From: Bdellovibrionales bacterium
Lineage (GTDB): Bacteria > Bdellovibrionota > Bdellovibrionia > Bdellovibrionales > JAGQZY01
DNA: 64,000 nt
Direction: 5' to 3'
Assembly (NCBI GenBank): GCA_031429075.1
Contig: JANOYW010000028.1
Coordinates: 14,205 to 78,204, forward strand
Made by a program: the position numbers and the translations under genes
Part shown: in pieces, positions 1,483-31,014 of the stretch
Layout: each line of letters opens with the position of its first letter
How positions within the stretch are numbered: the stretch's first letter is position 1
The notes under the pieces: generated by a model
Seen by the model: only the letters and a program-made list of their open reading frames with translations
Told to the model about the DNA's origin: nothing
Databases searched by the model: none

Positions 1483-3684
1483 ATGTCATTCAATGCAAAC
1501 TGTTTCATCATAGGTGTACTTGGCGGCAAAGGCGGCGTGGGCAAAAGTGTTTTTGCTGCCAATCTTGCTATTAAACTGGGGCAAGAACTCAAGACCTCGT
1601 CCTTGCTTATCGACGCCGATCAAAAATCCTGCGGTGATCAAAACTTTATTACTGGCTTGTTGGATCCAAAAACTTTAGAAGAAGTTTGTAATTTTACAGG
1701 AAGTATCAATACAAAAAATTTGCTGACGGTTGTCTCCTCACACTCCACGGCGCCTATTCACTTCCTCGGCGCCGTCAAAAGCCCAGGACAAACGTTTACG
1801 GTGTCGCCACCCATTGCTCTTAAACAAATCGCTCAGCTCTCGCATTTTTACAAATTTGTTGTCATTGATTTTGGAAATGATTTAGATGAATTACAGATGC
1901 GACTCCTCGAAGCCTGCACAACGGCTATTGTAGTTACCACGCCAGAAGTCCTCACCGTGAATCAAACACTACGCGTGATCAACGACCTCCGGGCCGCCAC
2001 ATTGCCAAATGAAATGATTCAAATTGTGCTTAATAAAGCCAGCAACGTGGGGCTTGCGCCAAGTCAACTGGAGCAATCTTTTAAAAGACCAATGCTTGGA
2101 GTGCTTCCGCAAGACGACGTCACAACGGCAAATGCCCTTAAGCGGGCCACACCCTTTCTTTTGCTTTCTCCCCAGTCGCCGCTCGCCAACAGTTACACCG
2201 AAATTGTTCGCAAACTTACCGGTGGTGTTTTACAAAAATTAAAAACCCTCACACGAAATAATATTCTCACTTTTGAAAAACAAGAGTCCTCGGATACAAC
2301 TGCGAAAAATTCCATTGATCCGCGCACACATCTTAAAATTACAATACATACCCGTTTGATCAAGGAAATGAACCTTAAAAACGACGACATCACAAAGGCC
2401 AGCAAAGATGCTGAAAAACGGCGCAAACTCGAAGGCGATGTGAAGGTTGCGATTTCGAAAATTCTTGATCAAGAGGCCCAGGGAGTTTCACCTGCGGACC
2501 GTAAACAAATCATCAAAGAAACTCTCGACGAAGCTCTTGGGCTAGGTCCTCTCGAGGATCTCCTTTCACAAGTCGATGTCAGTGAAATTATGGTCAACGG
2601 GTTTGATAAAATCTTTATCGAAAAAGGGGGCCGGCTACAGCTGAGCAAAACCCACTTCACTTCAAATATTCAGCTGCGCAATGTGATCGAGCGGATTGTT
2701 ACACCTCTTGGACGACGTATCGATGAAAAAACTCCCTATGTGGATGCACGCTTAGCCGATGGAAGTCGGGTGAACGCCATCATTGAGCCGCTTTCAATTG
2801 ACGGCCCTTCTCTCACAATTCGTAAATTTAAAAAGGATGCTTTTGGCGTCGACCAGTACGTTCAATACAATTCGATAAGTCGTCCAATGATGGATTTTTT
2901 AAAATTGGCCGTTGAAAATGGTTGTAATATTATTATCTCGGGCGGTACGGGGTCTGGTAAAACCACTCTCCTCAACTGTATGTCTTCTTTTATTCCTTCG
3001 ACAGAAAGAATTATCACCGTTGAAGATGCGGCTGAACTTCAACTTCGTCAGACCCACGTAGTACGGCTTGAAACTCGTCCAGCCAATATGGAGGGCGAAG
3101 GCGCCATCACCATTCGCGACCTTGTAAAGAACACTTTGCGTATGCGTCCCGATCGCATCATCGTGGGTGAGTGCCGAGATGGCGCTGCTCTCGATATGCT
3201 TGCCGCTATGAGTACCGGCCACGATGGTTCGATGACAACTGTCCACTCCAATAACCCGCGTGAAGCGATTGGACGACTGGAAACGCTTTGTCTGATGGCG
3301 GGGATGGATCTTCCTGTACGCGCCATTCGCGAACAGATTGCCGGTGCCGTCGACTTGATCGTGCAGATTTCGCGACTTTCTGATGGAAGTCGTAAGATCA
3401 TGAGCATTGCCGAGGTTCAGGGTATTCAAGGCGATACGCTCACCCTTCAGGAGGTTTTTGAGTTTAAAGAAACCGGCTTTGATAAAAATAGAAAAATTAT
3501 TGGACAATTTTTATCTAAGGGGCTTATTCCAAAATTTATTCAAGAGCTTAAAGAGCGTGGCATCGGTATTCCAAAGGATCTCTTCTCCAACGAAGCGGCC
3601 AATGCGCCCGCTCCCGTGGATACTTCGAAGCCCGCGGGCCCACAATACTCGGTTAAAAAAGCCAGTGGAGGGAGCAAACCATGA
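1483..3684 (+). CDS. cpaF: Fused TadZ/CpaE-like (MinD/ParA-type) domain + CpaF/TadA secretion ATPase
   Basis: N-terminal deviant Walker A GVLGGKGGVGKS, typical of CpaE/TadZ. The same frame continues into a CpaF-type ATPase (Walker A SGGTGSGKTT, VEDAAEL, GHDGSMTTVHSN). ATG 1483 is preceded by GAGGAGG; the longest ORF starts at 1393. Confidence 0.85.
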   Translation: MSFNANCFIIGVLGGKGGVGKSVFAANLAIKLGQELKTSSLLIDADQKSCGDQNFITGLLDPKTLEEVCNFTGSINTKNLLTVVSSHSTAPIHFLGAVKSPGQTFTVSPPIALKQIAQLSHFYKFVVIDFGNDLDELQMRLLEACTTAIVVTTPEVLTVNQTLRVINDLRAATLPNEMIQIVLNKASNVGLAPSQLEQSFKRPMLGVLPQDDVTTANALKRATPFLLLSPQSPLANSYTEIVRKLTGGVLQKLKTLTRNNILTFEKQESSDTTAKNSIDPRTHLKITIHTRLIKEMNLKNDDITKASKDAEKRRKLEGDVKVAISKILDQEAQGVSPADRKQIIKETLDEALGLGPLEDLLSQVDVSEIMVNGFDKIFIEKGGRLQLSKTHFTSNIQLRNVIERIVTPLGRRIDEKTPYVDARLADGSRVNAIIEPLSIDGPSLTIRKFKKDAFGVDQYVQYNSISRPMMDFLKLAVENGCNIIISGGTGSGKTTLLNCMSSFIPSTERIITVEDAAELQLRQTHVVRLETRPANMEGEGAITIRDLVKNTLRMRPDRIIVGECRDGAALDMLAAMSTGHDGSMTTVHSNNPREAIGRLETLCLMAGMDLPVRAIREQIAGAVDLIVQISRLSDGSRKIMSIAEVQGIQGDTLTLQEVFEFKETGFDKNRKIIGQFLSKGLIPKFIQELKERGIGIPKDLFSNEAANAPAPVDTSKPAGPQYSVKKASGGSKP

Positions 3685-4568
3685 ACTTTTTAAATACGTT
3701 GTTTTCTAATTCGTTTTTTGTGTTTCCCACCGTTGGCGGAATCGTTTTTCTTTTAACTTATTTGTGGTCCCATAAACTTTTAAGCTGGCTCTATAAAAAG
3801 AGTATTGGGCAAAAAGACGAAATCGCAAAGTACATGGAGCTCATGTTTGTCGAAGTTGATGATAAAAAACTCACTTATTCACTCCTGTCGATAAGCCTCG
3901 GCTTGGGATTGTTATTTTTTATGCTCTTTTGGCCCAACGTTACCGTTGGCTTGTTGTTTGGCTCGGTGTTTACAATGCTTGGTTGGACCGTGCCAAAATA
4001 TATCTTTCGCTCCATGTATGAAAAACGCTGTAATACCGTTGTAAATCAAATGGTGGATGCCACAACGATCCTCGCCAACGGAATTCGCGCCGGGCTCAGC
4101 GTTAACCAGGCCATGGATCGTGTTGCAAAAAATTTAAAGCCTCCTATTAGTCAAGAATTCCGCCTCGTTCTGTCACAAAACCAAATCGGTCGTCCCATCG
4201 AAGAATGTATGAATGAACTTGCTGAACGGGTTCCTCGCCCAGACATCCAAATGTTCGTTACTGCGGTTAATATTTTAAAAGAAACGGGCGGAAATATGGC
4301 CGAGACGTTTCAAACAATTAACTATACCATCCGCGAGCGGCAAAAAATTGAAAAAAAGATCGAAGCTCTAACGGCCCAGGGGGTTATGCAAGGAATTATT
4401 ATCAGCCTTGTCCCCGTTTTGCTATTGGTGATTTTTTATTTTGCCGACCGCAATTATGTGATGCCGATGTTTACGACCACTTTAGGATGGGTGTTTTTAT
4501 TTCTTATTTTCTCTCTTATTGCAGTTGGTGCTTTCTTTATCAAAAAAATAATTACCATCAAGGTGTAG
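3681..4568 (+). CDS. tadB: Tad pilus inner-membrane platform protein (TadB/TadC, T2SS-F family)
   Basis: ATGA start/stop overlap with cpaF at 3681-3684. N-terminal TM segment, cytoplasmic helical domain and C-terminal TM pair, typical of TadB/C. Operon context. Confidence 0.8.
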   Translation: MNFLNTLFSNSFFVFPTVGGIVFLLTYLWSHKLLSWLYKKSIGQKDEIAKYMELMFVEVDDKKLTYSLLSISLGLGLLFFMLFWPNVTVGLLFGSVFTMLGWTVPKYIFRSMYEKRCNTVVNQMVDATTILANGIRAGLSVNQAMDRVAKNLKPPISQEFRLVLSQNQIGRPIEECMNELAERVPRPDIQMFVTAVNILKETGGNMAETFQTINYTIRERQKIEKKIEALTAQGVMQGIIISLVPVLLLVIFYFADRNYVMPMFTTTLGWVFLFLIFSLIAVGAFFIKKIITIKV

Positions 4569-27316: not shown

Positions 27317-27402
27317 TTAATCAGTATTATCAGCAACTTATATGCCATCAATGGCGTTTTTGTTTTAACGAAACTGGATTGACTATTTCCGGGAGTCGGA
27401 GC

Positions 27403-29295
27403 ATGTTCGTTTCCTTCATGAGAAGAGAAAAAGCCTCTGTTGGCGAATCTACAGTTATTCTCGCGGCTCTTGGTGTTGTGTTTGGAGACATTGGTACCAG
27501 TCCCCTCTATGCTATGCGTGAGGCTTTTAACCATGCCGATGGCATGACGACCGATGCCGGTAATGTTCTGGGTGTCCTTTCACTAATGATCTGGTCCTTG
27601 ATTCTTATTGTTTCGCTTAAATATTTAATGTTTGTTTTGCGCGCAGATAACAAGGGCGAAGGCGGAGTTCTAGCTCTTACAGCTTTGATCTCTTCGCTGC
27701 GTCCTGTAGAGAACACAAAAAGAAGTATTATACTGATGTTTGGGCTCTTTGGAGCGGCGCTGTTGTTTGGTGATGGTGTCATCACTCCGGCGGTTACAAT
27801 CCTTGGAGCCGTTGAGGGCCTGAATGTTGCCACCCCTATGTTCAAACCTTTTGTTGTTCCAATCACTATTACTATTCTTGTGGTTCTTTTTTGGGCGCAA
27901 CATTATGGAACAGCAAAAATTGGCGCTGTGTTTGGTCCCATCATCCTCCTGTGGTTTGCAACTATTGGAACTTTGGGAATCTTTGCGATTGTTAAGGCCC
28001 CAGTAGTTCTCGAAGCCTTCAATCCCATCTACGCCATTGATTTCTGCATCCATGGTGGTAGCAAAATCCTTATTGTTTTGGGCGCTGTTTTTTTAACAAC
28101 GACCGGGGCCGAAGCCATGTATGCGGACATGGGGCATTTTGGTGCCTCCGCTATTCGCAAAGCTTGGTATTATGTCGCCTTCCCCTGCTTGCTCCTAAAT
28201 TATCTCGGCCAGGGCGCTCTTTTGCTCACTTCGCCGGAAGCAAAAGCAAACCCATTTTTCTATCTTGTGCCAAGCTGGGGTCTGTATCCAATGGTTGTTC
28301 TTTCGACGATGGCTGCGGTGATTGCTTCGCAGGCGTTGATCACGGGTGTTTATTCTATTTCTCAGCAAGCGATTCACTTAGGCTATCTTCCTCGACTGCG
28401 CATTGTGCACACTTCGAGTATTGCTAAGGGGCAAATCTACATGCCCCATATCAACTGGCTACTGCTTGGAATGACGGTTTGGTTAGTGATCACATTTCAA
28501 ACATCCAGTGCGCTCGCGGCCGCTTATGGAATTGCCGTCGCTCTCACAATGATCATTACTACGGCTTTGGCTTGTATTGTTGCGCGCCGATTGTGGCGCT
28601 GGTCGGCCACCGTTACTTCTATCGCCTTCGTTTTGATGATGGCTGTGGATCTTGTGTTCTTGTCATCAAACGTCATCAAAATTCAACATGGCGGTTGGTT
28701 TCCTTTGGCGCTCGCATCTGTTCTTTTTATGATCATGACCACCTGGAAAACAGGTAAAGTCATACTTTTTGAATACCTAAAATCTCACACCATTCCCTTT
28801 GAACAGTTTCTAAAAGACATCCGCACCAAACCACCGGCCCGTGTTCCTGGAACTGCTGTGTTTATGACGGCGGAGCCCTCCGGGATTCCCCTCGCTCTTC
28901 TGCATAATGTGAAACACAACAAGGTTCTGCACGAACGAAATATTTTTCTGACTATTTTTGTAGAAGAAGTTCCGTTTATTCGTAAAAATGCCCACGTTGA
29001 AGCCACTGAATTAAAAGATGGGTTTTACCGAATGTCCGTTCGTTATGGTTTTATGGAAAACCCAGACATCACCGATATCTTTGACGTCACCGGCGAAAGC
29101 CAAATCGTTCTTGATCCGGAACAAACGTCCTTCTTTCTGGGTAAAGAAACTATTATCGCTACTCACAATCGAGGCATGGCGATATGGCGTGAAAAACTTT
29201 TTTCGTTTATGTCCAAAAATTCCGAAGGCGCCATCGTCTTTTATAATATTCCACGCCAACAAGTTGTGGAACTCGGCGTTCAAATCGAACTCTAA
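27403..29295 (+). CDS. kup: KUP/HAK/KT potassium uptake transporter
   Basis: LGVVFGDIGTSPLYAMRE signature, about 12 TM helices, and a C-terminal cytoplasmic domain. The longest ORF starts at TTG 27379. Confidence 0.92.
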   Translation: MFVSFMRREKASVGESTVILAALGVVFGDIGTSPLYAMREAFNHADGMTTDAGNVLGVLSLMIWSLILIVSLKYLMFVLRADNKGEGGVLALTALISSLRPVENTKRSIILMFGLFGAALLFGDGVITPAVTILGAVEGLNVATPMFKPFVVPITITILVVLFWAQHYGTAKIGAVFGPIILLWFATIGTLGIFAIVKAPVVLEAFNPIYAIDFCIHGGSKILIVLGAVFLTTTGAEAMYADMGHFGASAIRKAWYYVAFPCLLLNYLGQGALLLTSPEAKANPFFYLVPSWGLYPMVVLSTMAAVIASQALITGVYSISQQAIHLGYLPRLRIVHTSSIAKGQIYMPHINWLLLGMTVWLVITFQTSSALAAAYGIAVALTMIITTALACIVARRLWRWSATVTSIAFVLMMAVDLVFLSSNVIKIQHGGWFPLALASVLFMIMTTWKTGKVILFEYLKSHTIPFEQFLKDIRTKPPARVPGTAVFMTAEPSGIPLALLHNVKHNKVLHERNIFLTIFVEEVPFIRKNAHVEATELKDGFYRMSVRYGFMENPDITDIFDVTGESQIVLDPEQTSFFLGKETIIATHNRGMAIWREKLFSFMSKNSEGAIVFYNIPRQQVVELGVQIEL

Positions 29296-29496
29296 AGGTA
29301 CGGACACACTTTTTGGGACTTGTTGCGTAAAAAAAATCTAACCTTTTTCAAAGGGCTTCTTTTTAAGACACGTCCATTCATGGACTCGCTCGCAGCTCGA
29401 AACATCGTGTTTGCGAGAGGTCTTAAAAAGAAGCCCTTTGAAAAAGGTTAGATTTTTTTTACGCAACAAGTCCCAAAAAGTGTGTCCGTACCTTTA
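29293..29496. repeat. Perfect 77-bp inverted repeat with 50-bp spacer (204-bp palindromic element; MITE-like or giant bidirectional terminator)
   Basis: The arms 29293-29369 and 29420-29496 are exact reverse complements (checked base by base). The outermost triplets are the TAA stops of kup and rlmH. The spacer holds smaller hairpins (TCCAT/ATGGA, CTCGCA/TGCGAG). Confidence 0.9.
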
Positions 29497-29970
29497 TTCG
29501 TTGTGGTAGGGGATGCCCTTAAGAATTGTGAAGGCGCGGTAGATTTGTTCTAGCAAAAAGAGTTGGGCTACGTGGTGGTTCATGGTCATTTTTGACAAGC
29601 TGATTTTATCGTTGGCGCGCTTTTGGATGGCTTCGCTAACGCCGTAGGCCCCACCAATAATAAACGTGCAGCGACGGGAACTGAAATGTTCCTGAAGTTT
29701 CGAAAGCTTTTTTGAAAACTCAATGGAGGTCATCGCTTTACCGCCCACATCGCAAAGGATCACATAGTCTTTATCGTCGATTTTTTTAAGAAGGCGCTCG
29801 GCTTCGCGCTCGATTTTTTCTTCGATCTTTTCGCGCGCTTCACGGTAGGGCTTGATAGCCGCAACTTCAAATTTGATAAAATGATTTAATTTTTTTTCGT
29901 AAATTTGTTGAGCGAGCGCAAGCCAGTTCTCTTTGTCTTCGGAGACAACAAGCAGCTGCATTTGCGTCAC
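29494..29970 (-). CDS. rlmH: 23S rRNA (pseudouridine1915-N3)-methyltransferase RlmH
   Basis: SPOUT/RlmH C-terminus FIIGGAYGVSEAI...ISLSKMTMNHHVAQLFLLEQIYRAFTILKGIPYH. Confidence 0.9.
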   Translation of the reverse strand: MTQMQLLVVSEDKENWLALAQQIYEKKLNHFIKFEVAAIKPYREAREKIEEKIEREAERLLKKIDDKDYVILCDVGGKAMTSIEFSKKLSKLQEHFSSRRCTFIIGGAYGVSEAIQKRANDKISLSKMTMNHHVAQLFLLEQIYRAFTILKGIPYHNE

Positions 29971-29973
29971 AAA

Positions 29974-31014
29974 CTATTTTCCTATTTCTGGTTTATCAAG
30001 GGTTGGATCTTTCAACTTAAGATCCTCCGCCATTCTCCAAAGGTTTTCTAGATTGTATTCCATGCGGACGTAATCATAAAAAATATGAACAATCAAAGAC
30101 CCAAAATCCACAAGGACCCAGCGCCCCTCATCCATTCCCTCGATGCCCACAGGAGTCAGACCATATTGATTTTTGACTTCTTTGTAGAGCCACTCACCCA
30201 GGGACTGTGTGTGTCGCTTACTTGTTCCTGAAGCGATGATCACATAGTCCGATGGGGCGATCATTTCTTTTAAATGCAGGGCCCGTACATTGATGGCTTT
30301 TCTATCAAAAAGAGTGTTTGCACAAAACTCAGTAAACAAACGGTAATCGCCCACTTTAGGGCCGATAAGAGGATAGAGATTGTGCTCTTTAATATATTCT
30401 TCCACTCGGATATCTAAAAACTTATCAACACTGCGATTGGTTTTTAAAAATTTGCGAATCTCTGTGGCGGCAACGTCGATTCCTTTAACACGCAAAAACT
30501 CAACGGTTCTGCCGGTTGTGAGAGCAATAAAAGAGCGGTCAAGAACGTCAACATAAGGACGAAGCTCAACGGGAAGATCTTCCTTACTAAACGGTAAAAT
30601 GTTTCCCGGGCGGCTCACCACGATAAAGTTGCACATTTCCAGAAGCTTTTCGAACTTGTGCCATTTATGAATTTGATAAAATTCATCTAAACCTACAACA
30701 AGATGAATTTGTTCCGGTGTGTACTCTTCGAGATACTTTTCCACAGTTTGAATCGTGTAACTTTTCCCTTTGCGACGAATTTCTTGATCGTCTACTTCAA
30801 CATTATCAAAGTCTTGCAAACCTGCTCGAACCATCTCCGCGCGCTGTTCGGGCGTTGGACCATCGACAAAATCTTTTAATGGGTTTTGGTGCGCCGGAAT
30901 CACATACACTTTGTCGATTTTTGTTTTTTCGAAAATATTTTGAATACAGTATGTGTGACCCATATGAAAGGGATCAAACGTGCCGCCATAAAGGGCAATT
31001 ATTTCATTACGCAT
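29974..31014 (-). CDS. nadD: Fusion protein: nicotinate-nucleotide adenylyltransferase NadD + ribosomal silencing factor RsfS
   Basis: N-terminal YGGTFDPFHMGH (NadD). The C-terminal ~120 aa carry RsfS motifs DYVIIASGTSKRHTQSL...WVLVDFGSLIVHIF. One uninterrupted ORF of 346 aa. Confidence 0.85.
   Translation of the reverse strand: MRNEIIALYGGTFDPFHMGHTYCIQNIFEKTKIDKVYVIPAHQNPLKDFVDGPTPEQRAEMVRAGLQDFDNVEVDDQEIRRKGKSYTIQTVEKYLEEYTPEQIHLVVGLDEFYQIHKWHKFEKLLEMCNFIVVSRPGNILPFSKEDLPVELRPYVDVLDRSFIALTTGRTVEFLRVKGIDVAATEIRKFLKTNRSVDKFLDIRVEEYIKEHNLYPLIGPKVGDYRLFTEFCANTLFDRKAINVRALHLKEMIAPSDYVIIASGTSKRHTQSLGEWLYKEVKNQYGLTPVGIEGMDEGRWVLVDFGSLIVHIFYDYVRMEYNLENLWRMAEDLKLKDPTLDKPEIGK

Follow-up and report, generated by a model that had tools for sequence, protein, structure and literature searches.

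In the stretch of Bdellovibrionales DNA analyzed here (64,000 nucleotides of contig JANOYW010000028.1, called the window, to which all unprefixed coordinates refer), the convergent genes kup and rlmH are separated by a perfect 204-bp palindrome, which is real and belongs to a dispersed family of hairpins rather than being a local oddity. An inverted-repeat search returned two 77-nt arms (29293–29369 and 29420–29496) that are complementary at 77 of 77 positions across a 50-nt gap; it is the only inverted repeat of at least 30 nt with arms no more than 500 nt apart in the whole window. When the window was probed with 47 nt of the arm, two places were hit, namely both arms, with zero chance matches expected. 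When folded, 29293–29496 formed a single long stem whose tip carries two hairpins, with energies of −151 kcal/mol (z = −25) for RNA and −103 kcal/mol (z = −23) for DNA, and the 50-nt spacer alone formed two small hairpins (−18.5 kcal/mol, z = −2.8). The outermost triplets of the arms are the TAA stop codons of the two genes. The exact 77-bp arms, the spacer with its smaller hairpins and the terminal TAA triplets had all been reported in a preliminary description of this DNA, and repeat search, open reading frames (ORFs) and folding bear them out. Inverted doublets of repetitive extragenic palindromic (REP) sequences that form a hairpin are defined as REPINs and are linked to REP-associated tyrosine transposases (RAYTs) (PMC3116915); these terms are used in the features of the locus, which are as follows.

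27379–29295, plus strand: kup, K+ uptake permease (PF02705, PF22776), taken as the ORF from the first TTG; public gene calls give a 630-amino acid version starting at 27403.
29293–29496, no strand: full perfect palindrome, 77-nt arms and 50-nt tip, including the two native stops (repeat search, folding).
29293–29295, plus strand: native TAA of kup, inside the hairpin base (ORF, empty sites in relatives).
29296–29493, no strand: element proper, 198 bp, AGGTACGG...CCGTACCT, a REPIN-like hairpin (comparison with other copies and empty sites).
29297–29322, plus strand: conserved family terminus (the REP "head"), GGTACGGACACACTTTTTGGGACTTG, 26 nt, kup-proximal; common to copies in two metagenome-assembled genomes (MAGs) and identical around the RAYT gene.
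29323–29369, plus strand: copy-specific inner left arm, the exact mirror of 29420–29466 (copy alignment); its first approximately 11 nt (TTGCGTAAAA...) are a locus-specific signature also found in the orthologous element of loci L038/L017.
29370–29419, no strand: tip module "core A", with hairpin 1 (29372–29376 with 29381–29385) and hairpin 2 (29389–29417) (folding, copy alignment).
29467–29492, minus strand: the same head inverted, rlmH-proximal (arm complementarity, other copies).
29485–29486, no strand: insertion site of an IS30-family element in other samples (TC on the plus strand, GA on the minus strand), empty in the window (comparison with contigs carrying an identical rlmH).
29494–29496, minus strand: native TAA of rlmH, inside the hairpin base (ORF, empty sites in relatives).
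29494–29970, minus strand: rlmH, SPOUT methyltransferase of 158 amino acids (ORF, homologues).

Judged by these comparisons, the element proper is taken to be 29296–29493 (about 198 bp), with the outermost 3 nt of each arm belonging to the genes' own stops. It is shorter than the palindrome because the stops are present in relatives without the element, and the palindrome gains 3 nt on each side because both convergent genes end in TAA, so that TAA meets TTA by coincidence. The element is kept in independent assemblies from ENA and NCBI, once identically (L002) and once with a single T-to-G change in one arm (L001), and it is therefore no assembly artefact.

The preliminary description had proposed that extra copies be sought in related genomes, and such copies were found. 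When one genome per species was scanned for the exact 20-mer ACGGACACACTTTTTGGGAC of the head, it was present on at least 14 contigs of MAG GFS_9251 and three contigs of MAG VAR_61, both Bdellovibrionales, mostly as inverted pairs 82–200 nt apart. The copies have the end (A)AGGTACGGACACACTTTTTGGGACT in common, and the interior next to it differs from copy to copy and is mirrored in the opposite arm; the outer perfect arm runs for 36–74 nt and is near-perfect further in, total lengths are 109–228 bp, and all copies lie between ORFs. As in REPINs, two inverted copies of a conserved repeat pair into one hairpin, and in GFS_9251 and VAR_61 this unit is dispersed in many extragenic copies, their number, in the tens, being a lower bound from fragmented MAGs. 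The tips are of several kinds. Core A, which together with the long stem gives a T- or Y-shaped end, occurs in the window and in at least seven other copies (L003, L015, L020, L023, L025, L030, and L031), core B in L017, L021, L038, and L039, core C in L012, and a plain hairpin in L008, L016, L026, and L028.

Ten loci (L001–L010) lie on contigs that encode exactly the RlmH of the window. These contigs often break inside the element or run on into other family members (L003, L007, and L008), and in L004, L006, L009, and L010 the contig ends within or soon after the repeat. Dispersal within the window's own genome is suggested indirectly, by these breaks and alternative continuations. In L003 (L003:10478–11070), an identical rlmH and left arm are followed by a variant core-A tip, a truncated right arm and then unrelated genes rather than kup; this may be a haplotype produced by REPIN-mediated rearrangement, or the metagenome assembly may have been joined chimerically at the repeat.

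A single scan of metagenomes with the same 20-mer gave merely a look-alike repeat end from rumen Bacteroidota and no further family members. There (L013, L018, L019, L024, and L046–L054), exact ACGGACACACTTTTTGGGAC is likewise the conserved end of a repeat (...CTACCTATACGGACACACTTTTTGGGACATTATC followed by variable sequence), in the opposite polarity, and no insertion sequence (IS), RAYT, or other transposase was seen in its neighbourhood. It was dropped as a family member, one family-level match being about the chance expectation for a 20-mer in that much sequence; counted as one family, the match is probably coincidental.

For co-variation of the arms, five core-A elements representing four independent copies were aligned. 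Along the long stem, 17 of 74 pairs had changed on both sides and 3 on one side, with 98% of cells paired; none of 500 shuffles reached these values, and sliding the partner by one column brought pairing down to 51%. The core A tip showed three two-sided changes among seven copies with 93% of cells paired (2 of 500 shuffles were as good), and its structure is thus modestly supported by co-variation. Compensatory changes therefore keep the hairpin between copies, as is frequent in REPINs, and are more extensive here than was noted for those elements by Bertels and Rainey (PMC3116915). The copies differ mutually at many positions, yet the arms of each stay mirror images, and we propose two causes for this. 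Selection may act for a foldable substrate, in that only foldable copies would serve as substrates, and long quasi-palindromes may be corrected by intra-strand template switching at replication. Templated correction of this kind is known from quasipalindrome mutagenesis in E. coli.

The same heads also bracket a transposase gene. At L014, two inverted ends 727 nt apart enclose an ORF of 197 amino acids that matches Pfam Y1_Tnp (E = 5e-10, above cut-off) and scores 73.5 bits with the NCBIfam model REP_Tyr_transpos (cut-off 80) versus 23.6 bits with that of IS200. The best solved structure for the protein was 4er8 (E. coli TnpA-REP), with the HUH motif (HYH, residues 61–63) and the tyrosine motif YIYRNPV aligned. 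RAYT homologues are common in Bdellovibrionota, several being named RayT by the Joint Genome Institute, and those at 90, 66, and 62% identity occupy one slot, in the order S49 peptidase, RAYT, 156-amino acid gene, Exo_endo_phos. For the 90%-identical homologue (P0002), 24 contigs were read and two gene arrangements seen, 17 of the contigs sharing one neighbourhood (L032–L036 and collapsed duplicates). The gene was always bracketed by inverted TA(A)-GGTACGGACACAC(T)TTTTGGGACTTG (L014, L032–L036, L055, and L056), and several of these flanks carry an 8-bp hairpin, GGGACTTG-N6-CAAGTCCC, next to the head. The head is conserved better than the RAYT protein, since heads bracket the gene in every case down to 62% identity.

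These properties were compared with the published hallmarks of RAYTs, namely a single copy at a fixed place in the genome, vertical descent, and inverted repeats on either side (PMC3116915; PMC5581495; bioRxiv 10.1101/2021.07.10.451892), RAYTs being single-copy and vertically inherited (PMC5581495; bioRxiv 10.1101/2021.07.10.451892). A single copy at the same genomic location was found in related species (100, 90, 66, and 62% identity), flanked by the same repeat as the hairpins in inverted orientation, and no paralogous copy of the transposase unit was seen among the loci read. The complete genome of B. bacteriovorus CP102930.1 encodes a RAYT of 43% identity inside 33-nt inverted repeats (L057:1426–1458 and 2131–2163) that also start with GGTACGGAC, the right-hand one overlapping the TAG stop of the neighbouring gene. 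Metagenome samples with the rlmH of the window also hold a RAYT gene bracketed by the same inverted heads, P0002 occurring in the same samples (ERZ27314275, BUSI22 series). At one locus, L037, the RAYT segment has the opposite orientation relative to its flanks, both of which resemble the same side; either the stretch between the heads has inverted or the assembly has looped back on itself.

Inverted heads around a single-copy, syntenic RAYT of the HUH/Y1 type are the signature of a REPIN–RAYT system, not of a miniature inverted-repeat transposable element (MITE) of the IS630 kind with TA duplication. We consider it likely that the palindrome is a copy of a REPIN-like family spread in trans by the RAYT of this clade. 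By homology to TnpA-REP and to IS200/IS605 single-strand transposition, the RAYT would recognize the head and adjacent hairpin on single-stranded DNA, such as the lagging-strand template, and would cut and rejoin it at that point, thereby moving or copying the entire hairpin in trans; its own gene would remain in place and be vertically inherited. Between kup and rlmH, the element would probably also serve as a 3′-end hairpin on both convergent transcripts.

The same observations bear on the possibility that the hairpins are miniature derivatives, MITEs or palindrome-associated transposable elements (PATEs), of a still-autonomous IS200/IS605-type IS, with a Y1 unit that is mobile rather than a domesticated RAYT. 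That the transposase belongs to the Y1_Tnp superfamily and scores just under the RAYT equivalog cut-off would suit such an origin, as would the identical ends of the transposase unit and the small elements, which recall an IS/MITE pair. We nevertheless regard it as improbable, given the unit's single syntenic position in species as distant as 62% identity, with no paralogues seen, the symmetric inverted repeats at the ends, unlike the asymmetric left and right ends of such IS, and the preference for the RAYT model over that of IS200.

Orthologous kup–rlmH junctions were reached through RlmH homologues and are listed with the RlmH identity of each.

L038 (= L017 of GFS_9251), 95%: identical heads, the same sub-terminus TTGTTGCGTAAAA and a core-B interior, with 7 additional nt (TAAAGGC) on the kup side.
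L039, 91%: core-B element whose head has diverged (GTTACGCATATACTTTTTGGTTAC) and whose far end is truncated.
L040, 81%: unrelated 35-bp-stem hairpin plus approximately 200 nt.
L041, 81%: 50 nt, empty site.
L042, 66%: related element (GGACGGCCTCACCTTTGGGACTCAATGCATAAAT...), which the Kup frame enters for 30 codons.
L044/L045, 64%: 28 nt, empty site.

At both empty sites, Kup ends in ...GVQIEL-TAA and RlmH in ...YHNE-TAA, as in the window, and the stops are therefore native. The idea that the element donated the stop codons was ruled out by these empty sites. The preliminary description had reconstructed an ancestral junction in which kup reads four more codons (YSLW) into rlmH; its arithmetic is right, but it is contradicted by the relatives, which have spacers of 28–50 nt between ...QIEL-TAA and ...HNE-TAA. 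It had also reasoned that a single-copy sequence conserved at this locus in distant relatives would speak against a MITE, and here several relatives do have the locus filled, yet the sequence exists in many copies. Occupation of the site either predates the 91% divergence or results from repeated hits.

Comparison of 29323–29466 with L038:2978–3212 and L017:2000–2227 showed the outer 36 nt of both arms to be identical and the interior to be entirely different. The interior has thus been replaced symmetrically (core A versus core B) with the outer 36 nt of each arm kept, by either gene conversion or nested insertion. A flip/flop of core B between L017 and L038 was considered and rejected, the two being the same element seen from opposite strands. 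At L042 (L042:2978–3114), where kup is represented on the contig by its last 8 codons, the head has diverged (GGACGGCCTCACCTTTGGGAC), the rlmH TAG abuts directly on the element and the stop of the Kup frame is lost. The hairpin of L040 (L040:2975–3090, GGACAATCCGGTGCCAGGTCCTGTTTAATTCGGA...) has a perfect 35-bp stem and starts 4 nt past the rlmH stop; it may represent a second repeat family in the same niche.

The ends of the family copies tend to lie flush with stop codons. For 18 of 31 assessable ends, an open frame of at least 90 codons has its stop within 3 nt of GGTACGG or overlapping it, a count that includes ends orthologous between species, so that independent loci are fewer. The junctions take the forms TAG|GTACGG, TAA|AGGTACGG, and TGA|AAGGTACGG. 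This flushness could arise because the enzyme chooses such targets, or because selection trims dispensable DNA between gene ends. TA precedes the terminus at most ends, both ends of the window element included, and, where present, it usually consists of the first two bases of the TAA or TAG stop of the adjacent gene; TGA stops occur as well. The frequency of TA is explained by the abutment of the ends on stop codons. About one-quarter of termini have no TA (e.g. CGCG-AAGGTACGG, GGGA-AAGGTACGG, and GTGA-AAGTACGG), which argues against a TA target duplication.

An IS630/Tc1-mariner-type MITE, with 75-bp terminal inverted repeats, a TA duplication and a DDE transposase elsewhere, had been offered as one of two readings in the preliminary description. 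A multi-copy family with conserved inverted termini would fit it, and so would the TA ahead of the terminus at most ends, both of those here among them; the non-autonomous, multi-copy hairpin repeat that it implied is retained. The link to IS630 is not, because the gene bounded by these termini is of the Y1/HUH RAYT type, the sole coding unit so bounded in a search that was not exhaustive for whole genomes. The flanking TA cannot stand as a target duplication when a quarter of termini lack it and the remainder mostly borrow it from a neighbouring stop. In addition, the empty sites differ from what removal of the element plus one TA would leave (L041 and L044/L045 have 50- and 28-nt spacers with unchanged C-termini), and none of the 57 loci showed an IS630 transposase. 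We judge this origin very improbable.

The other reading in that description, an unusually long terminator acting in both directions, or an RNA hairpin, that evolved locally under selection at the convergent junction, is less credible still. Its position between convergent genes, the extreme stability of the RNA hairpin and the unrelated 35-bp-stem hairpin in the L040 gap, which suggests that hairpins are tolerated or favoured here, would be in keeping with it. Intrinsic (Rho-independent) terminators have a short G+C-rich stem followed by a U-tract, a form that the element at 29293–29496 does not have. A promoter/terminator consensus scan scored no terminator-like site within it on either strand, the tails being merely UUUAUU and UUUAGA, and Rfam in E-value mode gave no significant match over 28900–29900, the long hairpin accounting for a sub-threshold match to BTnc060 (26 bits against a gathering score of 229). 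The termini and tip are, moreover, also found at numerous unrelated loci and flanking the RAYT gene, so that a terminator does not explain how the element arose. As for a fold-back chimera, chimeric reads can yield perfect palindromes and L037 resembles a loop-back through inverted repeats, but the same element between the same genes in independent assemblies, one with a single-base arm variant, and the orthologous occupied sites in other species make an artefact of assembly a negligible prospect.

Several observations weigh against the element being a REPIN-like copy mobilized by the RAYT. No transposition event was observed, and filled/empty polymorphism within a species was not found at the kup–rlmH site, which is occupied in all relatives with RlmH identity of at least 91%; the empty sites belong only to distant relatives and have unrelated spacers. 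The element is twice the usual REPIN length, and tens of copies were seen (a lower bound) against the hundreds typical of REPINs. No short REP palindrome is present inside each arm (a single arm folds at −7.2 kcal/mol), the 8-bp REP hairpin GGGACTTG/CAAGTCCC occurs only in the RAYT-flanking copies, and the head falls outside the GTAG/CGTC classes of PMC3733652. The REP_Tyr_transpos score of 73.5 bits is slightly under the curated cut-off of 80. Furthermore, tblastn of the RAYT against the window gave no match, placing the gene outside these 64 kb, and the P0002 RAYT is assigned to the organism of the window by its co-occurrence in samples and its identical heads, an assignment that we treat as provisional.

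A bolder possibility, which we hold to be unlikely but not negligible, is that Bdellovibrionota carry a distinct REPIN–RAYT lineage, with hairpins of about 200 bp that dock on stop codons, tips that are T-shaped and swappable, a RAYT specific for gene ends and a role in punctuating 3′ ends. If so, the elements would be more than passive selfish repeats, and the exchange of core A for core B at the same site would amount to modular exchange between copies.

The head has itself received secondary insertions. In L004–L008 and L010, the rlmH-proximal arm contains an IS or a contig break within one, the IS being complete in L005, L007, and L008. That of L005 (L005:4474–5510) is 1037 bp long and encodes a 312-amino acid IS30-family transposase (NCBIfam, 196 bits against a cut-off of 80); 21 of 30 positions agree between its terminal repeats, and GA is duplicated within GGTACG[GA]CACAC, equivalent to 29485–29486 of the window. 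Beyond the IS, L005 returns to the element of the window, and L007 and L008 to a different palindrome sharing merely the terminus ...CACACTTTTTGGGAC. Since its position is the same in two different family members, the IS30-family element appears to target the head sequence. A separate insert of about 54 nt (GGGCACGGAGCGAGCTCT..CGAACGAGCGCCGAA.GCGC...) with two small hairpins breaks the right-hand head at GTGTGT^CCGTACC, within 1–2 nt of the IS30 insertion point. Two copies were seen, in two MAGs (L031, minus strand, about 3650–3705 in reverse-complement coordinates, and L021:1292–1345).

Upstream of rlmH, the gene at 29974–31014 (minus strand) encodes 346 amino acids with a NadD-type nucleotidyltransferase domain (PF01467) and an RsfS domain of the ribosome-silencing type (PF02410). 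This apparent nadD–rsfS fusion is conserved in all relatives examined.

The REPIN–RAYT relationship has been studied almost wholly in Gammaproteobacteria and is here extended to the predatory Bdellovibrionota. In our literature search, no paper was found in which RAYTs, REPINs, or REP elements are connected with Bdellovibrio, nor any on a REPIN or RAYT in Bdellovibrionota. B. bacteriovorus CP102930.1, which is cultured and completely sequenced, has the same architecture and could serve as an experimental model. With their long near-perfect hairpins, mirrored substitutions at about one-quarter of stem positions and ends at stop codons, these elements offer a natural system for the study of palindrome upkeep and target choice. 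In practical terms, the repeat accounts for the breaks and mis-joins of metagenome assemblies at the kup–rlmH locus, and the palindrome should not be annotated as a terminator or regulatory RNA.

Among known systems, some resemble the family in part. Correia/NEMIS elements of Neisseria and other IS630-related MITEs are likewise small, non-coding, multi-copy sequences with terminal inverted repeats, which commonly lie between convergent genes, at their 3′ ends, and frequently have TA on their flanks. They differ in that they duplicate TA and relate to DDE transposases, whereas here TA is not universal, coincides with stops and goes with a tyrosine HUH enzyme. With IS200/IS605 elements and PATEs the family shares a Y1 HUH transposase, recognition of single-stranded hairpins (here by homology) and the lack of a classical target duplication. 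The ends of those IS are asymmetric sub-terminal hairpins and the IS are multi-copy, whereas here the ends are symmetric and the transposase is single-copy and syntenic. The secondary insertions also have a precedent, since IS that target REP sequences, such as IS1397 and ISKpn1, are known from enterobacterial bacterial interspersed mosaic elements (BIMEs). As with these, an IS (here of the IS30 family, 1037 bp, with a 2-bp duplication) sits at a fixed position of the head in at least two family members; unlike them, it belongs to another IS family and another host clade, and it is a secondary insertion that the window element does not carry.

The closest likeness is to the REPIN–RAYT systems of P. 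fluorescens SBW25 (GI–GIII) and the REP/BIME elements of E. coli with TnpA-REP. Common to all are an inverted doublet that forms a long hairpin, extragenic and dispersed, with frequent mirrored changes, and an HUH/Y1 transposase that lies in inverted repeats and is single-copy, syntenic, and vertically inherited. The differences are several. A typical REPIN is about 100 bp long and present in hundreds of copies (bioRxiv 10.1101/2021.07.10.451892), whereas members here measure 109–228 bp (198 bp in the window) and number in the tens, as a lower bound. The GTAG and CGTC superfamilies of REP sequences have the terminal tetranucleotide of that name next to a 5–13-bp stem (PMC3733652); the head here begins GGTACGGAC..., has neither tag, runs on for 9 further nt before the stem and is non-palindromic in the dispersed copies. 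The short palindrome (about 14 bp) that each REP of a REPIN has of its own is lacking from the window element. Copy-specific interiors, exchangeable tips (cores A, B, and C), ends flush with stops and a host clade within Bdellovibrionota likewise set the family apart. The element between kup and rlmH is, in this comparison, a new example of the known REPIN–RAYT kind with unusual traits, rather than a new kind of system.

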